DNA of 64,000 bases from a bacterium (lineage in GTDB: Bacteria > Patescibacteriota > UBA1384 > XYA2-FULL-43-10 > JAKAMI01), in the NCBI GenBank assembly GCA_021812945.1, contig JAKAMI010000002.1, positions 1,047-65,046 on the forward strand, in the 5' to 3' direction. Below, piece by piece: positions 21,668 to 31,953 of the stretch. Position numbers and translations under genes: made by a program. The notes beneath the pieces were generated by a model that did not search any database, was not told the origin of the DNA, and saw only the letters and a program-made list of their open reading frames with translations. Each line of letters opens with the position of its first letter. The stretch's first letter is position 1.

Positions 21668-22672
21668 ATGGAAAATCATCCGAAGGTTTCGATAATTATC
21701 CCAGCTAGGGCAATCAACGACTACATCTTAGAGTCGGTGCCGAAGATTTTGGAACTAGACTGGGATGACTACGAGATTTTAATAATTACCGATAAAAAAG
21801 ACACTCAGCACACTTGGCCCAAGACTCATTTACTTGTTTCGGGGCCAGTCGGTCCGGCCGAGAAGCGCGATCTTGGGGCGAAGAAGGCTAGCGGCGAGAT
21901 TTTAGCCTTTTTGGATGACGACGCTTACCCCGAGTCCAACTGGCTCAAGGAGTCGATCCACTGTTTTCTGGAGGATGAAAAGGTCGCAGCCGTCGGCGGC
22001 CCGGCCATAACCCCCGGTGACGACGGGATTTTACAAAAAGTCTCCGGCGCGGTTTTCGAGTCGTACCTCGGCGGCGGCCCTGCCCGCAACCGCTATATGT
22101 GCCTCGGCGACCATTGCCTGTGCGAAGACTGGCCGACCGTAAATTTACTAGTCCGCAAGGACGTTTTCGAGAAGATTGGCGGCTTCGATACCGCTTACTG
22201 GCCCGGTGAAGATACGAAATTATGTTTGGATATTTTAAACGCCGGCTATCTGATGAAATACGACCCCAAAGCTATCGTTTACCACCACCGCCGGAGCGAC
22301 CTCTACAAACATCTGAAACAAACCGGCAACTACGCTTTGCACCGCGGCCACTTTGCCAAGAAATATCCCAAGACTTCGCTCAAGCTGTTTTACTTTGTCC
22401 CCACTCTTTTTGACCTTTACCTTGCTGTCCTGCTGTCCAGCTGTTTAGCTGTCTGGCTCGGAGAAATACAGTTTGACAGCTGGACAGAATACAGTTTATT
22501 AATTCCAATCGCAATATATTCGGTCGGGCTAGTCATCGATGCTCTCATCATTAGTTGGCGGTGGAAGAACCCGCTAGTCGGCCTGCTGGCTACGCCGATG
22601 ATCCTTTTAACCCACCTCTGGTACGGTATTCGCTTCGTCCAAGGACTGGCGGTTACAAAATTAGCACGCTAA
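21668..22672 (+). CDS. Glycosyltransferase family 2 with C-terminal TM helices
   Basis: VSIIIPA, AFLDDDAYP, IGGFD..PGEDTKL. Confidence 0.88.
   Translation: MENHPKVSIIIPARAINDYILESVPKILELDWDDYEILIITDKKDTQHTWPKTHLLVSGPVGPAEKRDLGAKKASGEILAFLDDDAYPESNWLKESIHCFLEDEKVAAVGGPAITPGDDGILQKVSGAVFESYLGGGPARNRYMCLGDHCLCEDWPTVNLLVRKDVFEKIGGFDTAYWPGEDTKLCLDILNAGYLMKYDPKAIVYHHRRSDLYKHLKQTGNYALHRGHFAKKYPKTSLKLFYFVPTLFDLYLAVLLSSCLAVWLGEIQFDSWTEYSLLIPIAIYSVGLVIDALIISWRWKNPLVGLLATPMILLTHLWYGIRFVQGLAVTKLAR
22550..22672 (+). repeat. 123-bp direct repeat, copy 1 (3' end of the GT2 gene)
   Basis: Matches 27464-27586; the first ~63 bp are identical and the rest diverges mostly at synonymous sites. Confidence 0.92.
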
Positions 22673-22737
22673 AATCCTGAATCAATGACTCGAATCCGAT
22701 CTTACCCCTTTCGCTGATTTTTGATAAACTCATAAAT

Positions 22738-24276
22738 ATGAACAGCCCCGACCTAGCCCTAGATAACCACGACCGAGACCGTGAGAACCATCCGGATCTT
22801 GGTCGAATTATCGATCCTAAACACCTTACCCTTCTTGACGAGGTAGTTGATAACGGCCAACACAGATTGAGTGAACTATTGAAGCGACACGGGAAAATAG
22901 CCGAACCGCTTATGGAGCGTTTCGGGCAATTGCTCGAAAATGCCAGTCGACTCTCAGAATATCTGGACGACGTTTTGGGTCAAGCCGGTTACCAAAACGA
23001 TGCCGGAAGAATCCTGCAGAATATACTCCAACCGGCCGTAGCCTGGGCTGAGAACCAACGGTTTGAATATCCAGATGATAACCCCGACTATGATCCGCCA
23101 TTCCCCCTGCCTTCGGATCTGCACTTGTTCTACATCCACCCGATCGAATCTTTCTTGGGTCAAGCCGAACGTTCAATCGACGGTTTTGTCAAATATCAAT
23201 ACTATTTCGAGCGGTTCTGGCGAGAAACGGAGCCGTCGACGACGAAAAGCGACTTGATCACTCCGGAAAAAGTGGCCGCTGGCCAAGAGAAGATAATGCA
23301 GAGTTTAAATCTAAACGAGTACGAAAAAAGAACCGCCGATGCTTCTGTGACCCTGCATTATTTGCTACAAGGACTGCTGGAAACCTCCGATGCCGATATC
23401 TTGCGCCTCTTGCGTCACCAATCTCCTGCCCGAGAAAAACTGGTTTTGGACTTGGGTTGCGGTACCGGCCGGCTTGATATTGCTCTCGCCCTAACCGGTC
23501 GTTTTAAGATCAATGGGATAGACTTGTCCTCCGAAGTTCTGGAACAGGCCGGCCAGCGAGTCGCCAATATAGCCGGCCCTGCGGGGCAAGATCAAGTACT
23601 GGGCGATCTGGACACGGCTGTCGGTTCTCTCTGGGCAAGCCGGCAAAAAAGAATCGGCCGCCTCGACATAGACCGCCAGCGCTTAGAATTATCGGACAGG
23701 CTGAGCTTAAAAAAGGCTAGTTTTTTTGAACTGAACAGAGAGAAATACCAAGAGCTGTTTGGCAATCGACTTGCCGACGCTGTTACCATCACTTGGCACA
23801 CCTTCGGTTTTGCCGGTGACCGCTCGGGACAGCTTCAAGTCTTAGCAAATGCCATTGACAACCTGGAACAGGGCGGGAGGATTCTAATAGAAATGCCCGA
23901 CCGTGAATTGGGTGAGTACGGGCGGGTAGCAGAGAGCTATCATCGGCAATCGGGCGGCAAGACGCCGCTGGGAGTTGTGGTCGACCGACCGGCCGGCAAA
24001 GGCAGTGTTTCCAACCCCGACTCCGAAGGCGCTCCGCGCTACTTCCCGAGCAAGGCTGAGATGTTCTCGGTTCTAAAAGAAGCCGGTTTCGAAAAAGTCG
24101 GTTGTCAAAGCTACTATATTCGGATCCGCGACAACGGCAAAGAACGATTGATTAAAGAAATTCTGTACACAGCGCAAAAACCGCTGGCCGCCGGCGACTC
24201 GGAAAAAGAGGCAATACTAACCTATCGTCTAAGAAATCCCAACAGCTTTGATGCCCTGCCAAGCGAGCTCGAATAA
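22738..24276 (+). CDS. Class I SAM-dependent methyltransferase with a long N-terminal extension
   Basis: VLDLGCGTGR, GIDLS, TFGF, LEQGGRILIE, LKEAGF. Confidence 0.82.
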   Translation: MNSPDLALDNHDRDRENHPDLGRIIDPKHLTLLDEVVDNGQHRLSELLKRHGKIAEPLMERFGQLLENASRLSEYLDDVLGQAGYQNDAGRILQNILQPAVAWAENQRFEYPDDNPDYDPPFPLPSDLHLFYIHPIESFLGQAERSIDGFVKYQYYFERFWRETEPSTTKSDLITPEKVAAGQEKIMQSLNLNEYEKRTADASVTLHYLLQGLLETSDADILRLLRHQSPAREKLVLDLGCGTGRLDIALALTGRFKINGIDLSSEVLEQAGQRVANIAGPAGQDQVLGDLDTAVGSLWASRQKRIGRLDIDRQRLELSDRLSLKKASFFELNREKYQELFGNRLADAVTITWHTFGFAGDRSGQLQVLANAIDNLEQGGRILIEMPDRELGEYGRVAESYHRQSGGKTPLGVVVDRPAGKGSVSNPDSEGAPRYFPSKAEMFSVLKEAGFEKVGCQSYYIRIRDNGKERLIKEILYTAQKPLAAGDSEKEAILTYRLRNPNSFDALPSELE

Positions 24277-25029
24277 ACCGGACATAGTCTTGGCTATCAG
24301 CTCGTTCTCGATAATCACGCCTATCAGGGCGTTATTTTTGTTATAGTTGGCAAAAGAAACCTTGTTGCCGTATATTTGCACTTCCAAAAGTGCCGGAAAA
24401 AGTTTTTGTTCGACGACCCTGGTCTCTCTTAGCTCCTCTTTGGTTCTTCCAATATATGAAGCGGTTTCCGGATCGGTTTTATCAGCGGAGACTATAACCC
24501 GGGCGGTAATTTTATTTTTAATCCTTAAAGGTGCGTAGCTTTTCCTCAGCCAACTGCTAACTGTTTCTTCGGCTTGTGTCAACCCAAGAAAAGACTTGAT
24601 CGGTTGCCCGGACCTCAAAGTATCCAAATAGAGATTTTTAATACCCTCTATCCCTTCAAAAACTCTTACTACCGGTTTCTCGGTGGTGTTTCTGTAAAGC
24701 TCGGAAAGTCCGGGAATGACCGAGTCGATCATCTTCTGGGCCTGGGAAAGCTCTCGTTCCCTGTTGTTCAAATAAACTTTTAGCTGGTACGGGTCGTTTG
24801 GCCGGAATTCGAGTTTCTTTTTTACGTCGGACTTTTGGACTAAGGACTTCTGGGCTAAGGACTGTAAAACATTGTAGAGATTGGTTCGCGAAAGCTTGGG
24901 GATCAGTTTCTGCATAGATAAAATGCTGACCTGTCCGTTCTTGATCAGAACTTCGTAAACCAAAGCCTCACTGTCGTTGAGACCGGTTCTGGCGAGTATT
25001 TCTTTATAATTGATGTCTTTTCTGTCCAT
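24229..25029 (-). CDS. TrmB-family transcriptional regulator
   Basis: GLNDSEALVYEVL, RTNLYNVLQSLAQKSLV (wHTH), KPVVRVFEGIEGIK, IYGNKV, FELAW. Confidence 0.88.
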   Translation of the reverse strand: MDRKDINYKEILARTGLNDSEALVYEVLIKNGQVSILSMQKLIPKLSRTNLYNVLQSLAQKSLVQKSDVKKKLEFRPNDPYQLKVYLNNRERELSQAQKMIDSVIPGLSELYRNTTEKPVVRVFEGIEGIKNLYLDTLRSGQPIKSFLGLTQAEETVSSWLRKSYAPLRIKNKITARVIVSADKTDPETASYIGRTKEELRETRVVEQKLFPALLEVQIYGNKVSFANYNKNNALIGVIIENELIAKTMSGLFELAWQGIKAVGIS

Positions 25030-25035
25030 ATCTCT

Positions 25036-25064
25036 ATTATAGATCAAGTAATATAATATGTCAA
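25036..25064 (-). promoter_or_regulatory. Consensus sigma70 promoter for a leaderless trmB mRNA
   Basis: Minus strand reads TTGACA-17 nt-TATAAT-6 nt-ATG. Confidence 0.8.
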
Positions 25065-25189
25065 TTATTAAATGACAAATAAATAGAAACGATGATTAAA
25101 GTAAAGATAATTGGTAAAATAGGATACTGATAAATACTTATAAATTAAGAGATCAATTTTAAAATAAACTTAAGTACGTCATAACACCA

Positions 25190-25218
25190 TTGACAAATGC
25201 AAAATAATATGTTATACT
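25190..25218 (+). promoter_or_regulatory. Sigma70 promoter for the rightward structured transcript
   Basis: TTGACA (25190-95), 17 nt, TATACT (25213-18), with an extended -10 TG. Confidence 0.75.
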
Positions 25219-26044
25219 GCTTCCGTTACGATGGAAATCGGCCAAGGGCTTCAGGAAGCCGGGCAATAATCCAAAGTAGCACCTTAACAACCGAATATAC
25301 GCAGGTAGTAGCTGGTTTCACCGCCTCAAGCCCCACCAGGTCGGAGGCAAAACCGAAGCTAAAGCGCCGGAATTAAGTCGGCTTCCGCCCCCAGCGGGTG
25401 GACGCGTATTCGTAATTATCCGGTCTTTGGCAACCCGATCCTAGAGTCAGGAGCTTTAGAATCAATTGAGTGTAGTTTTATCCTTGCTTCAGGAGTGTAG
25501 TGATAAACCTATATATAACCATTAATCGAATGAGCCCAGGCATCACCCTCGAGGTGGGCCTTGACTCCTCGAGGGTGGGACAGGTTGTTCTCTACCGCAC
25601 TCAAAACGGCGTTTAAAAACGCCGCCTTTCCAGCGCTACTAATACATCATTAGAGGATCGGTTCGTGGTCTTCGGGCCATTGAACCCAAGATTCTCTATA
25701 GTCTCAATTCGCGACTCCCTTCGCTGCCCGTCATTCTGAGCAATCCCAACTGTCATTCTGAACGAAGTAAAGAATCTAGCGAAGCGAACAGCATTCTTTC
25801 CCATCTGGTCCTAAGCTGTCGGTGTCGGTGTACTGCCTACGCCAAGACTCAGGGGTGGAGAAGAAGAATTATTTTTTGTACAACCTTTGTCTCTTGTTTT
25901 TCACCCCGAGGGTGGGTTTTGACTCCCTCGGGGTGGGGCAAAAGACAAGGTTGTACAAAATACCCGCCGGCCTTCGCGCCAGGCGGGAAAATACCCTACC
26001 CCGGGTAAGTTCTCCATCTTGTCGGGAGCCGAAGGAGGCAGAAA

Positions 26045-26503
26045 ATGGAAGAAAAGATCAAAAAGGTCGTTTTTGTTCTGCTCGCCGCGATCAACGCGGC
26101 GATGGCGGCCTCGTTTGAGGCCGCCCGTCAAGCGCGCATTGAGGCGCGTCTTGACCGGCAGCGGCAGACTATCAAGAAGATGGCGATGGCCTCGCTCACG
26201 CCCACCGAGTGGGCGTTGGCCGGCCGCATCTCGGGTTACTTGGAGTGCCCTGAAGTAGCATTTCAGGGTTGGTGGCAGTCGCTGGCCCATAACTGGGCCT
26301 GCCGGACTGCCCTTGATTCCGAGGGGAACTTCCGCGACCCCTCGGAATCACAAGAAGTCGCGGATGCTCTTGCCTGGTTGGGGTTTCCTAGCCAGGCGGC
26401 GTATGCCACGTCGATGGAGGTCCTCTGGGCCATCCATCGCGCGATGGCGTATGTAAAAGCCGGGCACGAAGGCTGGATCGTGCCGTCGGGTGGTTGTGAA
26501 TAG
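26045..26503 (+). CDS. Hypothetical protein (152 aa)
   Basis: AAGGAGG Shine-Dalgarno before the ATG; Ala/Trp-rich, no recognised family. Confidence 0.6.
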   Translation: MEEKIKKVVFVLLAAINAAMAASFEAARQARIEARLDRQRQTIKKMAMASLTPTEWALAGRISGYLECPEVAFQGWWQSLAHNWACRTALDSEGNFRDPSESQEVADALAWLGFPSQAAYATSMEVLWAIHRAMAYVKAGHEGWIVPSGGCE

Positions 26504-26583
26504 CTAACCGGCCAAGGGACCATTCCGCGCCCTAAAGATTCCGATGAAAATCGGAACGTGTCCGCCTTTAGCGGATGCGGCGG

Positions 26584-26664
26584 CGTTATTCCGGTGCCTC
26601 GTTCGCCATGGCGGACAAGCAGCCCGAGTTCGACCGGAAGACGATAACTGAGATGGTGGCTGCT
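26584..26664 (+). ncRNA. Unrecognised structured RNA motif, copy A (stem plus pseudoknot)
   Basis: ttccggt/accggaa stem and gcagcc/ggctgc pseudoknot; homologous to 26968-27034 with compensatory changes. Confidence 0.55.
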
Positions 26665-26696
26665 AACTAGATTTGTGGCAGAAAGGAGGTGAAACG

Positions 26697-26927
26697 ATGA
26701 GTTCTTGGATCAGAATCTGTTCTGAATGTGGGGGGGAAGTTGTCGGGCAGGCGGGTTGCTACGCCTGCTCGACGGAGGCTACCGCCCGCAGGGGCGGCCA
26801 GCCAGAGCAGGGGCACCACCTCTGTTCTGTTTGGTCGGAGGCTCAAGCCTCCAGTGAAAAGTGGTATCCACTTTTCACGGAGCGTTCTGACAGGGCATGC
26901 GACTGTCCTGCCAGAAACCTCCGATAG
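26697..26927 (+). CDS. Small Cys-rich (zinc-ribbon-like) hypothetical protein, 76 aa
   Basis: AAAGGAGGTGA Shine-Dalgarno; motifs CSECGG, CYAC and CDC. Confidence 0.55.
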   Translation: MSSWIRICSECGGEVVGQAGCYACSTEATARRGGQPEQGHHLCSVWSEAQASSEKWYPLFTERSDRACDCPARNLR

Positions 26928-26967
26928 CCTCCGGAGTCTGCAGGCTCCGAGGTTGTTAATCCTGCAG

Positions 26968-27034
26968 CGTAAGTCCGGTGTGCTCCTGTAGCCCGAGATT
27001 CGACCGGAATACGAAAGCTTAGGTGGCGGCTACG
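26968..27034 (+). ncRNA. Unrecognised structured RNA motif, copy B
   Basis: cgta..tccggt/accgga..tacg stem and gtagcc/ggctac pseudoknot. Confidence 0.55.
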
Positions 27035-27112
27035 ATTTGCAATCATACCCGGCCCCGACGTCAGTGTCGGGGCCAAAAGAACAGTTGAGCCGAAATCCAC
27101 ACCAGGAAAGTA

Positions 27113-27176
27113 GGCTCACCTTCACCCGCTAAGCGGGTCTGATGAGTCTTTGAAAATTAAGACGAAAAGGTGAGTT
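27113..27176 (+). ncRNA. Hammerhead ribozyme, type III
   Basis: Core CTGATGA 27139-45 and GAAA 27164-67; stem I acccgc/gcgggt, stem II gtctt/aagac, stem III ctcacct/aggtgag; UUC triplet with cleavage predicted after 27123. Confidence 0.9.
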
Positions 27177-27263
27177 ATCGCCAACCTGCCTTTAGGTTGC
27201 ACTCCTGTCCCGACGCCCCGATTTGCGTCGGGGGTCGGGAGCCACCTGAGGGCAGATTAGCCT

Positions 27264-27303
27264 AAAAAATCCTCGCGTTATAACCGTACCGCGGGGATTT
27301 TTT
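27264..27303. terminator. Intrinsic terminator, probably bidirectional
   Basis: aaaaaatcctcgcg...cgcggggatttttt hairpin with A- and T-tails. Confidence 0.7.
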
Positions 27304-27463
27304 AGTTTGGAGACCAGACCTAATTTTAGTCTGTAGCGAAATATAGCTTGTTCTGTCATTCTGAACACAGTGAAGAATCTCTACCTGTAGAATAGATCCT
27401 TCGCAAGCTCAGGATGACAGAAATTAGCTTAGGATGACAAAATCAAACTTAAGGATGACAGAT

Positions 27464-27586
27464 ATTAGTTGGCGGTGGAAGAACCCGCTAGTCGGCCTGC
27501 TGGCTACGCCGATGATTTTCCTCACCCACCTCTGGTACGGTATTCGCTTTGTCCAAGGCTTAATTGTTTCTAAATTGGCCAGATAA
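27464..27586 (+). repeat. 123-bp direct repeat, copy 2 (orphan GT2 3' end)
   Basis: Translates ISWRWKNPLVGLLATPMIFLTHLWYGIRFVQGLIVSKLAR*, versus ...MILLTHLWYGIRFVQGLAVTKLAR* in copy 1. Confidence 0.92.
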
Positions 27587-27663
27587 AAGCTCTCTTAAAA
27601 CACAGAACCGCCGCCTAGACTGACGACGATTGCGGTTCTGGTTTTTTGTGCGACAGCGTGCGC

Positions 27664-28305
27664 CTACTGAGCGGTGGTCATCCAGTTGGATCGAGAACCA
27701 CACTGTGTCTCAAAATCGCCGACTCGCTCGAGGAGGAACTGAGAACGTGTTCTCGCTGCCGCCAGTTGCTTCTGGCGCACCTCTGTACACCGCTGAAACT
27801 CCCCAAGAATCTCGCGGACCATCTCCAGGGGTCGGAGACAGACACAGTTGAGGAGCTCCGTTGAGGTGACTACCCGGCTGGTGATCTCCACCGCTTTGCT
27901 GACTGTGAGATCACGATCCGAGTCGGGGGCCTCAGAGTAGGTCACCGTAGTAACAACCCATCCTTCTGAGCAGACACCCCAGATCTGACACCTATTGCTT
28001 AGTCTGTTCTCCTCCAACCATAGGAAACGCTGATCGTAGAAGAACATGCCTCTGGTGTTCTTCTTGAGAACCCCGGTGACTTTCGGCTTGTCCTGGAATA
28101 AATAGTGGGGAGATACACCGTCCCCCAGACATTCGACGTCAAGGATTGCCGAGAGTGGCAGGTCCCAGATCTCGTGCCTGAGGTAGTCGAGGAGTTGGTC
28201 GAATGTCTCTTCCCACCTACTTTCGCTGGTAATCTGGCGGATGACAGCGGCTCGTAGGTCACGTTCCCGGTCTGAGGTGAGTCTGATAGTGTTCTCGGTT
28301 GACAT
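27664..28305 (-). CDS. Hypothetical protein
   Basis: AAAGGAGG Shine-Dalgarno before ATG 28305; 213 aa. Confidence 0.65.
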   Translation of the reverse strand: MSTENTIRLTSDRERDLRAAVIRQITSESRWEETFDQLLDYLRHEIWDLPLSAILDVECLGDGVSPHYLFQDKPKVTGVLKKNTRGMFFYDQRFLWLEENRLSNRCQIWGVCSEGWVVTTVTYSEAPDSDRDLTVSKAVEITSRVVTSTELLNCVCLRPLEMVREILGEFQRCTEVRQKQLAAARTRSQFLLERVGDFETQCGSRSNWMTTAQ

Positions 28306-28389
28306 TGTCAACCTCCTTTGGGAGTTGCTCAGCAATTGCTAAGCTAGCCCGAGACTAGCATAAGTACGAATACTAAACAATACCCAAGC

Positions 28390-29716
28390 GGCTCTATGTC
28401 AAGTGGTGTGGTAGTAGGAGACTGATCGGGATAAATGCCAGCAATGCTTTTCTGATGTAGTTATCTACGTTTCTGAATCCGTACGAAAGACGTTTGATTG
28501 TTTTTAGTTTGGTATTAACTCCTTCGGTGTAGCCGTTAGTGGTGAAACGATCGAAGTAAGCCAGAATCTCATTTTGCCAGCGCATCAACATTTTCAGAAG
28601 TTGCCTGGTCGGTTGATGATTGGAGCCTTTCATCTTGTTAGTCAGGATATTAAAGCTTAGTTCCGCGAGTGTTTTGTTGGGTATCTTGTAGATCCGGCGC
28701 AACTCTTCTTTACAACTCCAGAGCTCGCCTAATTCCGGATATGCTTTGTTAATCTCGTTTAAGGCGACTCGTTCGTTTGGTTTTAGATGTTCTTTCGGTT
28801 TGTCAAAGATGACTTTGGGTAGTTTAACTTTGTCAGTCCCCTGGATTAAAGTTCTTAAGTTAGAAAGTTGACGATTGGCTTCGGCAATTACATGGAAAGC
28901 ATCAACTACGATTGTAGCCCTAGGTAGCTCCCTCTTGATTGTTTGGTAGTAACGCCTGTCCATATCTATACAGACTTCAGTAATGGCTTCCTTGCGCGCG
29001 GCTGGTATGTCTTGAAGAAATTTCTCAACCGTAATCCGACTATCATCCGGTAAGATAGAGATCAGCTGGCGATTTGTGATATCGGTGAAGGTAGGCAACA
29101 TTTTCTGGCCGGAAAAACTATGACAATCTAGACCCATTGAAATTACAATCCCTTCCGGCCAGACACCAACCAGAGGGTTGATTTTGTCGTTTAAGATTTG
29201 TTGAATGGTGGTAAAGCTAGTCTCGGCTAAATCCTGCTGAGTTTTGAAACTGGTTGAGCCCAAGCCCTTGATTATCTGATCTGCGTAGACCAGAGAATAG
29301 TTCTTATTAAGTGGAATTGATTTGTGGCGGTCGGTGGTGATGTGACGACGCCTATCTTTTTTCTGGCACCACCAGCAGAAGAATGCCCTAGTTTTAACTC
29401 TAAGCATAATTAAATTGCCTTGCCAAAACATGTGCTTAACCCGTCTGGGTTTTAAGTGGCGGTTAAGAGTCGTGACGTAGCGTCCGCAGTCTCTACAATG
29501 GACACCTTTAGTTTTTGGTCTTACGGTGATCAACATAACTTTGCCGTTTATCTCCGTATTTTCAACATGGAACTCTTGCAGTTTGAACATCTTTTTGAAA
29601 CAATTCTCCATAGGTAGACTCCTTGTAGTTAAGTGATATTTCCTACAATCAGTCTACCTACTTTTGTTTTACGCATAAAGCGTAGCTAACCGTACCACAC
29701 TGTTTAGTATAGAGCC
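28390..29716 (-). mobile_element. ISL3-family insertion sequence
   Basis: Imperfect terminal inverted repeats GGCTCTATgtcaagtgGTGTGGTA and GGCTCTATactaaacaGTGTGGTA enclose the transposase. Confidence 0.88.
28394..29611 (-). CDS. ISL3-family transposase
   Basis: N-terminal CxxC..CxxC, VCIDM, IVVDAFHV, TNGYTEGVNTKLKTIKRLSYGFRN. Confidence 0.93.
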   Translation of the reverse strand: MENCFKKMFKLQEFHVENTEINGKVMLITVRPKTKGVHCRDCGRYVTTLNRHLKPRRVKHMFWQGNLIMLRVKTRAFFCWWCQKKDRRRHITTDRHKSIPLNKNYSLVYADQIIKGLGSTSFKTQQDLAETSFTTIQQILNDKINPLVGVWPEGIVISMGLDCHSFSGQKMLPTFTDITNRQLISILPDDSRITVEKFLQDIPAARKEAITEVCIDMDRRYYQTIKRELPRATIVVDAFHVIAEANRQLSNLRTLIQGTDKVKLPKVIFDKPKEHLKPNERVALNEINKAYPELGELWSCKEELRRIYKIPNKTLAELSFNILTNKMKGSNHQPTRQLLKMLMRWQNEILAYFDRFTTNGYTEGVNTKLKTIKRLSYGFRNVDNYIRKALLAFIPISLLLPHHLT

Positions 29717-29856
29717 GGGCGGTTTACACCCCAATCCAAAAAACCCTTGACTAATTTCTGTCATGCTGAATTTATTTCAGCATCTTAAGACAAGTGCGTA
29801 ACATTTTGGGATTCTGAAACAAGTTCAGAATGACGAAAAGAAAAGTTTCCGGAATA

Positions 29857-30072
29857 CTACCTAGACCTCACAACCTCATTATACGCATTTATTAGCTCAT
29901 TTGCATCAGACTCATCAAGGGTTAGAATATAGTCCTGTTTTGTTAGGTTATCCTTCTCGGCTCCAGTAAAAATAAGACCGGTTTTGTTAGCAATTTGTTC
30001 TAACTGCTTCAAGGTCAGACGATTGAGTTTTTTTGCGAATGCCTCGTATTCTTTTTTAGTGAACGGTTTCAT
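29857..30072 (-). CDS. Hypothetical protein (71 aa)
   Basis: ATGA overlap with the upstream GNAT stop suggests translational coupling. Confidence 0.6.
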   Translation of the reverse strand: MKPFTKKEYEAFAKKLNRLTLKQLEQIANKTGLIFTGAEKDNLTKQDYILTLDESDANELINAYNEVVRSR

Positions 30073-30541
30073 AGCCCACCCTTTTTCAATTGCATTTGGA
30101 GTTCATCTCCGTTTCCTCCGGTGACTAAGAACCCCATTTTTTCATAGAGTTTTATCGCCCCAGTGTTTGATTTGAAAACTTCCAAATTGATCTCTGTTAT
30201 ACCCCATTTGTAGGCTTTGTGAATTACATATTCCATAGCCTGTTTTCCGATTCCCAATCCCCAATAGTCTTTGTCGCCGATCATGATAAAGGCATTCGAA
30301 ACATGGGCTTTTAGGTCAATTTCAGTCAGACCGACCATTCCGACCGTTTTCCGATCGATGTTAATGGCCCAAAAAATTTATTCTCATTAGCTTTGTATCT
30401 TTTGAACCAATCTTGCTGTTCTGTTCTCAACTGTACGATCGACTCATCTCCAAAAACACCCAGAGCTACTCGGGGGTCAGTCAACCACTTGACTCGGGTT
30501 GGTACATCTTTAGCGGTGAATGGTCTAAATGAAATTTTCAT
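30069..30541 (-). pseudogene. RimJ/RimL-type GNAT acetyltransferase split by a 1-nt frameshift in a T-tract
   Basis: MKISFRPFTAKD..ENKFF continues in the -1 frame as WAINIDRKTVGMVGL..YWGLGIGK..NTGAIKLYEKMGF; the break is at 30371-30376. Confidence 0.75.
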
Positions 30542-30573
30542 CTGCAAAATATATTTCAACGGGTAAAAAGGGG

Positions 30574-31953
30574 TTACTCCTCGTGCCAGTTGACTATTTG
30601 GTAGCTTTTGCTCTTGGGAAAATAAGGCGGCGGAGTATAGAGGAGCCGGTTGTCGTAGTTGTAACCGGCATGGGCGAAACCCCAATAAACAATACCGCTG
30701 CTGGTCCATTGGAACTCTAATCCCCCTTGTTGGGTAATGGCGCCGTAAATATTCAAAGTACCCTTAAGGGGACCGGAAGACTGAAAATAGGCCCGGCCGT
30801 TTTTGGCCAGCATAGCGGCGTCGATGGTCAGGTCGTTGGGGCAGGTCGAAACGATGGGGATATCTTGGTTGGCAACCAACCCCAGCTTGGCAACGGAGTC
30901 GTTTTGAGCATAGGTGATATTGCCGTTAATAAAGATATTTTTACTTGAGACAAGAGTCATCTCCCGATTTTTGACTGTACCGTCGACCCAGACATTGTCG
31001 TCAAAAAACATGAGATTCCCGGCATATGCCTGGCTCGGAAGATAACTTTTTTCAATGTTTATTTGCCCGTAAGCCGCCGTATTACTCTTGTAACTACTGA
31101 CTTTAGTAATGCTGTATTGACTATCCGCCAGGGTTATGTGATAGCCCTGTTTGTTGCTATCGCCGTAGTATTGGTTTTGGGCTATCGCTTTGGACTTCAG
31201 ATCGTTAAAATCAATGTCGGCTAGATTGAACGGAGCAGCGCTATAGACTATCGGGGTCGTATCGAATTTACCCGGACCACCGGCACAGGGGCAAATACCG
31301 CCGGGGCAGTAAGAGTCACTGACCCATTTGGTGGTAAAAGTTGAGTCAATCGAGCAGGTTAGATTGGTTTTACCTTTGATCTCGCCGTAATTACGAATAC
31401 CTTTGTTCGAGGAGTTGACCCAGACGGGGCCGTTGATCACCTCCTGGGTATCGACATAAATCTCGTCGGTTAAAGAATTGATGAAAGCGTTGGCAAACGA
31501 GGGGATGGTCAGATCGGTCGTGATGGTTTTCCGAGTGGTGCTGCCGTTGACCGTTCCGGTAGATTTCAGTTTCACGATGTTGGTATCGTTGGTTGGATAG
31601 ATGAGGAGACTGTAATTACCTATGAGTTTGCCTGAGTTGTCGGTGTAATCATGAGAGTAAGGGCCGTAAGAACCATCCGGATTTAACTGCCGGCAGGCAT
31701 CGGCGGAATTGGCGCTGCAGTTGTCCCAAAAATCGTTCGGATTGTGCTCCAGATGCCAAAGATAATAGTTGATGCCGGCTTCGGCAATGTTGACTGCCGA
31801 AACCTGGCGGCTGTAGAGGCTGGAACGTTTGAGACTGGCGGAGACCATCGCCAGAAGCGCTACCGCCATGATTAAAAGTATGGTGGTAGCCATCAGAATC
31901 CAAGGGAGAAAAGTAGCAGATTTGAAAGGAGTTTTGAGTCTGATTGGTCTCAT
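30574..31953 (-). CDS. PilX-like minor pilin / pilus assembly protein
   Basis: N-terminal hydrophobic helix, AVNIAEAGINYY, C-terminal YNYDNRLLYTPPPYFP; lies in the pil cluster. Confidence 0.75.
   Translation of the reverse strand: MRPIRLKTPFKSATFLPWILMATTILLIMAVALLAMVSASLKRSSLYSRQVSAVNIAEAGINYYLWHLEHNPNDFWDNCSANSADACRQLNPDGSYGPYSHDYTDNSGKLIGNYSLLIYPTNDTNIVKLKSTGTVNGSTTRKTITTDLTIPSFANAFINSLTDEIYVDTQEVINGPVWVNSSNKGIRNYGEIKGKTNLTCSIDSTFTTKWVSDSYCPGGICPCAGGPGKFDTTPIVYSAAPFNLADIDFNDLKSKAIAQNQYYGDSNKQGYHITLADSQYSITKVSSYKSNTAAYGQINIEKSYLPSQAYAGNLMFFDDNVWVDGTVKNREMTLVSSKNIFINGNITYAQNDSVAKLGLVANQDIPIVSTCPNDLTIDAAMLAKNGRAYFQSSGPLKGTLNIYGAITQQGGLEFQWTSSGIVYWGFAHAGYNYDNRLLYTPPPYFPKSKSYQIVNWHEE

Follow-up and report, generated by a model that had tools for sequence, protein, structure and literature searches.

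By every sequence feature examined, the segment at 27113 to 27176 of the window (the whole 64,000-nucleotide stretch of Patescibacteria DNA analyzed here) is a type III hammerhead ribozyme, and it lies at the 3′ end of what we infer to be one 2.1-kb transcription unit. On balance we think it probable that the ribozyme cuts after C27123 during transcription, which would leave a two-gene message with a new 3′ end sealed by a hairpin; the 180-nt tail is likely a by-product. The parts of the ribozyme are as follows.

27113 to 27176, + strand: type III hammerhead ribozyme (stem III 10 bp, stem I 6 bp, stem II 5 bp)
27113 to 27122 with 27167 to 27176, + strand: stem III, 10 bp, the outer two being G-U
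27123 to 27124, + strand: predicted scissile bond, 3′ of C17 in a UUC triplet, placed from the sequence and the hammerhead consensus (available text of PMC3088659)
27124 to 27129 with 27133 to 27138, + strand: stem I, 6 bp, loop UAA
27130 to 27132, + strand: loop 1 (UAA), U27130 at position 1.7 and the two A residues 8 and 7 nt 5′ of the core
27139 to 27145, + strand: catalytic core CUGAUGA, G5 at 27141
27146 to 27150 with 27159 to 27163, + strand: stem II, 5 bp, with the eight-base loop 2 UGAAAAUU
27164 to 27167, + strand: GAAA of the core

All conserved core positions are present (C3 U4 G5 A6 N7 G8 A9 at 27139 to 27145 and G12 A13 A14 A15.1 at 27164 to 27167). The U16.1-A15.1 pair is formed by U27122 and A27167, and H17 of the NUH triplet is C27123, which is unpaired; stems I and II are closed by loops, stem III is open, and no mispair lies beside the core. 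A preliminary description had called the segment a canonical type III hammerhead with a perfect core (CUGAUGA, GAAA, UUC) and a predicted cut after C27123; class, topology, and core bases are borne out, and the predicted site agrees with the hammerhead consensus. Rfam model RF00008 (Hammerhead_3, clan CL00010) matches over its full length with 41.5 bits (E = 5.9e-7), which is below the gathering score of 48.5 bits and hence below formal membership, so a default Rfam scan misses the ribozyme and shows just two tRNAs. This failure reflects the seed of the model and has no bearing on the fold. The ribozyme is the sole RF00008 match at E ≤ 1 in the whole genome (912 kb, 96% complete), and a descriptor with at least 4 bp per stem gave one match in 100 dinucleotide-shuffled 64-kb windows. 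Elsewhere in the genome, three type II matches and one type I match to loose descriptors were rejected (stems of 3 to 4 bp, no Rfam support). We likewise set aside a retrozyme, viroid-like, or circular RNA element, which needs tandem ribozymes or terminal repeats; this ribozyme is single copy in the genome. Contigs from four DNA sequencing runs of one study, three of them possibly the source of this assembly, hold no variant inside it.

U1.7 has been described as making a trans-Hoogsteen contact with loop 2 (available portion of PMC9217987). Loop 1 of the ribozyme has U1.7, and both of its A residues are in register with the conserved A of phage hammerheads that share loop 2: among the distinct viral cores sharing that loop in the matches listed, an A stands at −7 in 92 of 99 and at −8 in 62 of 99. 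These A residues likely make a tertiary contact with loop 2, and the register together with U1.7 would argue for a tertiary-stabilized, functional design. Separately, viral contigs L028 to L149 carry a 29-base hammerhead core with this loop 2, mostly in type I form, with a conserved A 6 to 8 nt before the core.

Matches to RF00008 occur in 11 of 44 genomes of the order, with up to five copies each, and in 12 of 151 genomes of the phylum (own genome included in both counts), versus 0 of 14 controls in each case; a copy above the RF00008 cutoff is present in just 1 of the 44. A 32-base core pattern found 10 stretches among the GTDB species genomes, in six records, five of them Patescibacteria (Berkelbacteria and Saccharibacteria among them). 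We aligned 24 type III cores, 17 from Patescibacteria and 7 viral. The core is invariant, 10 of 14 pairs show compensated changes, and the covariation score was reached by 0 of 500 shuffles, a result that is partly circular because the aligned cores had been picked by pattern and pairing. The true structure is 91% paired in this alignment, versus 31 to 50% for slid structures; alignment A2 has its paired count lowered by the misalignment of five rows at stem III.

The position of the ribozyme behind its gene also recurs. A same-strand open reading frame (ORF) of at least 60 amino acids ends within 400 nt upstream of 28 of 30 distinct Patescibacteria cores, and in 24 of those 28 it ends 35 to 92 nt before the cut, both counts standing without a random control (two of 29 loci surveyed, L017 and L306, gave no core, and L019 was left out). 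The relatives' core lies a median of 56 nt behind the orphan gene, after a hairpin. This hairpin ends 0 to 8 nt before the cut in all 18 cores folded, with z ≤ −2 in 14, and is weak or absent (above −8 kcal/mol) in 4 of 10 cores from a wider phylum sample. Downstream of the 30 cores, a U5 run occurs within 250 nt in 19, a following gene in 9, and a new promoter within 500 nt in 7, and the sequence 3′ of the core is not conserved, being unrelated among relatives. Judged from these layouts, the conserved side of the ribozyme is the new end of the upstream message rather than the released tail. Several genomes have tandem repeats of a promoter, one orphan gene, a hairpin, the ribozyme, and a terminator; one such array (L291:4735-9307, G009:C32) holds three hammerheads in 3.3 kb.

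In the window, the ribozyme closes a unit whose predicted order is promoter, structured leader, two GC-rich orphan ORFs, ribozyme, long hairpin, and terminator-like repeat.

24229 to 25047, − strand: gene for a TrmB-family regulator, which anchors the variable-cargo locus
25190 to 25218, + strand: sigma-70-type promoter, 11/12 with a TG extension, divergent from the 12/12 promoter of the TrmB gene
26045 to 26503, + strand: orphan ORF, 152 amino acids, GC 0.61, with a Shine-Dalgarno sequence
26697 to 26927, + strand: orphan ORF, 76 amino acids, Cys-rich, GC 0.59, with a strong Shine-Dalgarno sequence; its stop is 196 nt 5′ of the cut

The site at 25190 to 25218 is the only near-consensus + strand promoter, with no + strand site of at least 9/12 from there to the ribozyme. 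The leader includes a stretch at 25424 to 25434 (+ strand) that we take to be boxA-like and another of 34 nt (25473 to 25506) that is 82% identical in the TrmB-linked leaders of two other genomes, G031 and G039. Copies of the genome's dispersed palindromic repeat families lie in or beside the unit (25543 to 25582, 25730 to 25777, 25901 to 25940, and 27353 to 27466), and the one at 25900 to 25916 scores as a + strand terminator-like site inside the predicted transcript. Neither cargo ORF has a homologue beyond itself at near lengths, and the 152-amino-acid protein has no usable Atlas match. The 13 ORFs scanned at 21668 to 31953 include TrmB, a methyltransferase, GT2, GNAT, and an ISL3 transposase, and no phage gene was found among them. 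In the DNA runs, contig depth over the ISL3-family transposase gene (28394 to 29611, − strand) is about double that of the flanking sequence, and the GNAT acetyltransferase gene (30069 to 30709, − strand) is apparently split across two overlapping frames.

Seven relatives carry a TrmB orthologue of at least 43% identity, and the divergent promoter pair is kept in six of the seven, and the cargo genes at these loci are unrelated. With regulator and promoter pair conserved and cargo unrelated, the likeliest reading of what the preliminary description called an island is a slot in the chromosome whose cargo can be swapped. A phage or mobile context, which that description gave as usual for bacterial hammerheads, is not what the locus shows: regulator and divergent promoters are conserved chromosomal features in six of seven relatives, and no prophage is visible. 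A prophage-borne hammerhead cluster was rejected as well, there being one hammerhead only and no phage or integrase gene among the 13 ORFs. Hammerheads appear in only one of the seven orthologous loci (G020), three of which stop at contig ends; the locus therefore does not need one. G020 has two type III hammerheads, each sharing stem II with the ribozyme described here and lying behind unrelated cargo genes; one of them follows a Csx3 gene.

L287:4587-9436 (G020:C6): locus of the TrmB orthologue, containing Csx3 (Pfam PF09620, E = 5.5e-6), additional orphan genes, and both hammerheads

How the ribozyme might act depends on its flanks, where several predicted structures compete with or adjoin the fold.

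27051 to 27074, + strand: 9-bp GC-rich hairpin 5′ of the cut
27086 to 27118 (27086 to 27091 with 27113 to 27118), + strand: hairpin A, a competitor of the outer part of stem III that would close off the upstream product at its 3′ end
27169 to 27182 (27169 to 27173 with 27178 to 27182), + strand: hairpin B, which competes with the 3′ strand of stem III
27186 to 27255, + strand: long hairpin in the 3′ product
27262 to 27305, + strand: terminator-like inverted repeat, A6 before and U6 after (six U at 27298 to 27303)

The inverted repeat is absent from the list of a simple terminator scan; it could act on both strands, a convergent gene ending at 27664. Over 27078 to 27185, the predicted energy is −28.0 kcal/mol with full stem III, −27.3 kcal/mol with hairpin A and a family-like 4-bp stem III, and −33.0 kcal/mol with hairpins A and B and stem III open, so that the two hairpins beat the 10-bp stem III by 5.0 kcal/mol at predicted equilibrium. 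The predicted probability of stem III is 1.00 for the isolated motif, 0.37 to 0.48 only while the 3′ end of the transcript is at 27176 to 27180, and 0.00 to 0.19 in long contexts. The preliminary description's three fully paired stems are thus correct for the motif on its own; once flanks of at least 40 bases are included, the prediction is that two competing hairpins open stem III. Patescibacteria cores folded with 60-nt flanks likewise have a median probability of 0.06, from which we take the folding model, which has no tertiary or Mg2+ term, probably to undervalue the three-way junction. Stem III of this ribozyme is the longest among 30 Patescibacteria cores (10 bp versus 4 to 7 bp in the others), and its outer half consequently overlaps hairpin A.

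With the flanking hairpins out-competing stem III at predicted equilibrium, cutting would be co-transcriptional. We propose that stem III would form in part as its 3′ strand leaves the polymerase, allowing the cut after C27123, and that hairpins A and B would then capture its two strands, releasing the products and preventing re-ligation. Hammerhead chemistry would leave a 2′,3′-cyclic phosphate on the message and a 5′-OH on the tail. The host genome (96% complete) has PNPase, RNase Y, and RNase J, and searches of it for RNase II/R, Rho, and RtcB found none; hairpin and cyclic phosphate would slow PNPase, the sole 3′ exoribonuclease found, and RNase J would remove the 5′-OH tail, for which the glmS ribozyme is a precedent. 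The ribozyme would then serve as a portable boundary for swappable cargo genes and, more speculatively, might keep doing so should the boxA-like leader cause terminator read-through. The self-cleavage chemistry itself is established (available text of PMC6765202), and clustered bacterial hammerheads assayed earlier, from three clusters, all cleaved in vitro (available text of PMC3088659). What the message would gain from cutting is questionable, as an intrinsic terminator 140 to 180 nt downstream would already give a protected end.

The ribozyme might instead be a destabilizing or gated switch: the cut would strip the terminator hairpin and speed decay of the message, and the competition of stem III with hairpins A and B, adjusted by the rate of elongation or by a protein, would set the fraction cut. 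The three folds do lie within 1 to 6 kcal/mol of each other, the active fold peaks in a short transcription window, and it is the longest stem III of the 30 that creates the overlap with hairpin A. According to the available portion of a review (PMC6765202), which cites Felletti (2017) on 3′ UTR ribozymes in bacteria, such ribozymes can alter reporter expression. However, neither hairpin B nor the extension of stem III is typical of the family, and the competition may thus have arisen here by chance; stabilization is the better match for a protective hairpin at the end created by the cut, and no ligand or protein partner is indicated. We consider a switch unlikely.

Formation of a message end also has to be weighed against a relic, in which the ribozyme arrived with a phage-derived or recombined cassette and is now silenced by its flanks or neutral. 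The same stem II and loop 2 occur in at least 123 viral stretches among the matches listed (about 240 estimated), the cargo GC is 0.58 to 0.61 versus 0.46 for the genome, equilibrium folding disfavors stem III, and six of the seven orthologous loci show no hammerhead. A 95-nt repeat (94% identical, 22550 to 22644 and 27464 to 27558), itself a copy of the 3′ end of the glycosyltransferase gene, brackets methyltransferase, TrmB, and cargo unit (22550 to 27558), as a recombined cassette might be. No joint skipping the 22.6- to 27.5-kb segment was seen in the contigs of the four DNA runs, which break at the flanking repeats. Decay, on the other hand, would be expected to leave some mismatches, whereas the three stems are free of them and none of the core bases has been lost. 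The viral copies, too, are mostly type I: among the 106 distinct copies with this stem II in the matches listed, 90 are type I, 8 type III, and 8 unclassified, in contrast to the type III form and consistent slot of the Patescibacteria copies. As the sequences stand, one loop-loop module is reused across hammerhead permutations in viral contigs. A relic strikes us as quite unlikely.

The preliminary description had placed its emphasis on the released RNA of about 180 nt, consisting of the ribozyme, the long hairpin, and the terminator. Layout and length are as described there; a role for that RNA is weakly supported, the tail hairpin having no look-alike while the pre-cut hairpin recurs in relatives. 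The tail, or a circle made from it, could be a functional product in that it has strong structure (z = −6.9) and ends in a terminator, with a 5′ hairpin that could slow RNase J. Yet nothing resembling the long hairpin at 27186 to 27255 turned up in the genome or among the loci retrieved, and the relatives' post-core sequence is unrelated. A single cut would leave 5′-OH and 3′-OH ends on the tail, not the cyclic phosphate needed for ligation; with one cut, a tail that ends at the terminator, and no RtcB ligase found in the host genome, a circle is unlikely from this ribozyme alone. In the available text of PMC3088659, clustered bacterial hammerheads gave no spliced or circular products. We hold a functional tail to be highly improbable.

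Upstream of the ribozyme, the same unit carries two copies of an uncatalogued structured RNA, motif X.

26583 to 26663, + strand: motif X copy 1, 80 nt after the stop of the first orphan ORF
26967 to 27033, + strand: motif X copy 2, 40 nt after the stop of the second ORF and 90 nt before the hammerhead cut
L288:8577-8673 (G028:C17), − strand: further copy of motif X
L183:462-555, + strand: further copy of motif X, in a metagenome locus

Each of the four copies starts 40 to 80 nt past the stop of a same-strand, GC-rich orphan frame, and at L183 motif X is followed by a hairpin and a U-rich terminator, which is the usual hammerhead layout. By eye, a similar GC-rich hairpin lies 3′ of motif X at 27051 to 27074 and at L183:550-590, unreported by blastn. 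The four copies align with 40 invariant columns, and our model has an 11-bp helix with a bulged A and crossing 4-bp and 6-bp helices, as in a pseudoknot. With 94% of cells paired (matched by 2 of 500 shuffles) and four compensated pairs (matched by 14 of 500), the statistics are weak, coming from four pattern-selected sequences with the structure drawn from the same sequences; in one copy, four pairs of the 6-bp helix are disrupted.

No Rfam 15 family matches at E ≤ 10 over 24900 to 27800 or L183:400-700. Twister, twister-sister, pistol, hatchet, HDV-like, and glmS ribozymes were rejected on this ground, no covariance model matching at E ≤ 10. By eye, an HDV-like fold fails on an L3 loop that is too short, and none of twister, twister-sister, pistol, hatchet, SRP Alu, or kink-turn fits. 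Class patterns for motif X matched 1 of 161 other genomes of the class, a phylum pattern 0 of 400 other genomes, and three patterns over viral contigs gave 0 matches. Model R1 brought nothing new from 150 class genomes and 39 relatives beyond two weak matches, both rejected (E = 0.025 inside a coding frame; E = 0.24 and partial), and no new copy from 100, 12, and 9 fetched sources; blastn against phages and plasmids gave chance-level matches only. A metagenome pattern scan found one true copy among the 120 loci listed, the remainder being largely coding matches, most of which presumably reflect one peroxiredoxin motif.

Motif X is a candidate for a new ribozyme or for a processing signal. Shared genomic context led to the discovery of twister, twister-sister, pistol, and hatchet, and other motifs so found did not cleave (available text of PMC6765202); for that reason we keep our estimate low and regard a new class of self-cleaving ribozyme as a long shot. 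If it were one, the operon would be cleaved at three places, by two unrelated classes of ribozyme, to yield single-gene messages, and the cargo loci of Patescibacteria would be a hunting ground for new catalytic RNAs.

Motif X resembles the RNAs of that discovery route in being a conserved structured RNA in a slot used by hammerheads, and differs from the twister, twister-sister, pistol, and hatchet classes in having no Rfam 15 match at E ≤ 10. Motifs of the route are named RAGATH. The hammerhead itself shares with RF00008 type III hammerheads an open stem III topology, the full core, the NUH triplet, and loops placed for a likely tertiary contact, and is set apart by its three-base loop 1 with an eight-base loop 2, a combination common to phage type I hammerheads. 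Unlike the ribozymes of viroids and retrozymes, it is DNA-encoded and single copy, without a tandem repeat. Like the glmS ribozyme, it would self-cleave a bacterial mRNA to a 5′-OH product in a host with RNase J and RNase Y; unlike here, where there is no hint of a cofactor, glmS is ligand-dependent, lies in a 5′ UTR, and has another fold (available text of PMC6765202).

The role of bacterial hammerheads is an open question (PMC6765202 and PMC6155905, in their available portions). We found no paper joining hammerheads and Patescibacteria, and the available part of a 2026 preprint on new ribozyme classes makes no mention of the phylum. Hammerheads beside small, variable bacterial and prophage genes are already described: clustered copies flank such genes in prophage and bacterial operons and have been proposed to trim transcripts to the length of a gene or operon (Perreault et al. 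2011, PMC3088659; PMC6155905; both in available portions). The present ribozyme is a canonical hammerhead of a family common in Patescibacteria, nearly all of whose members are missed by the standard Rfam threshold; as one more copy it adds little, and the added value of the locus lies in the neighboring motif X. As in the clustered cases, it adjoins small nonconserved genes of unknown function, but it differs from them in standing alone at a predicted 3′ end, next to a TrmB regulator in a chromosomal slot of a Patescibacteria genome. The family offers many independent, chromosomal, single-gene cases of one layout (gene, stop, hairpin, cut, terminator), and because this layout is shared across so many cases, the hypothesis that these hammerheads make 3′ ends is testable with simple reporters.
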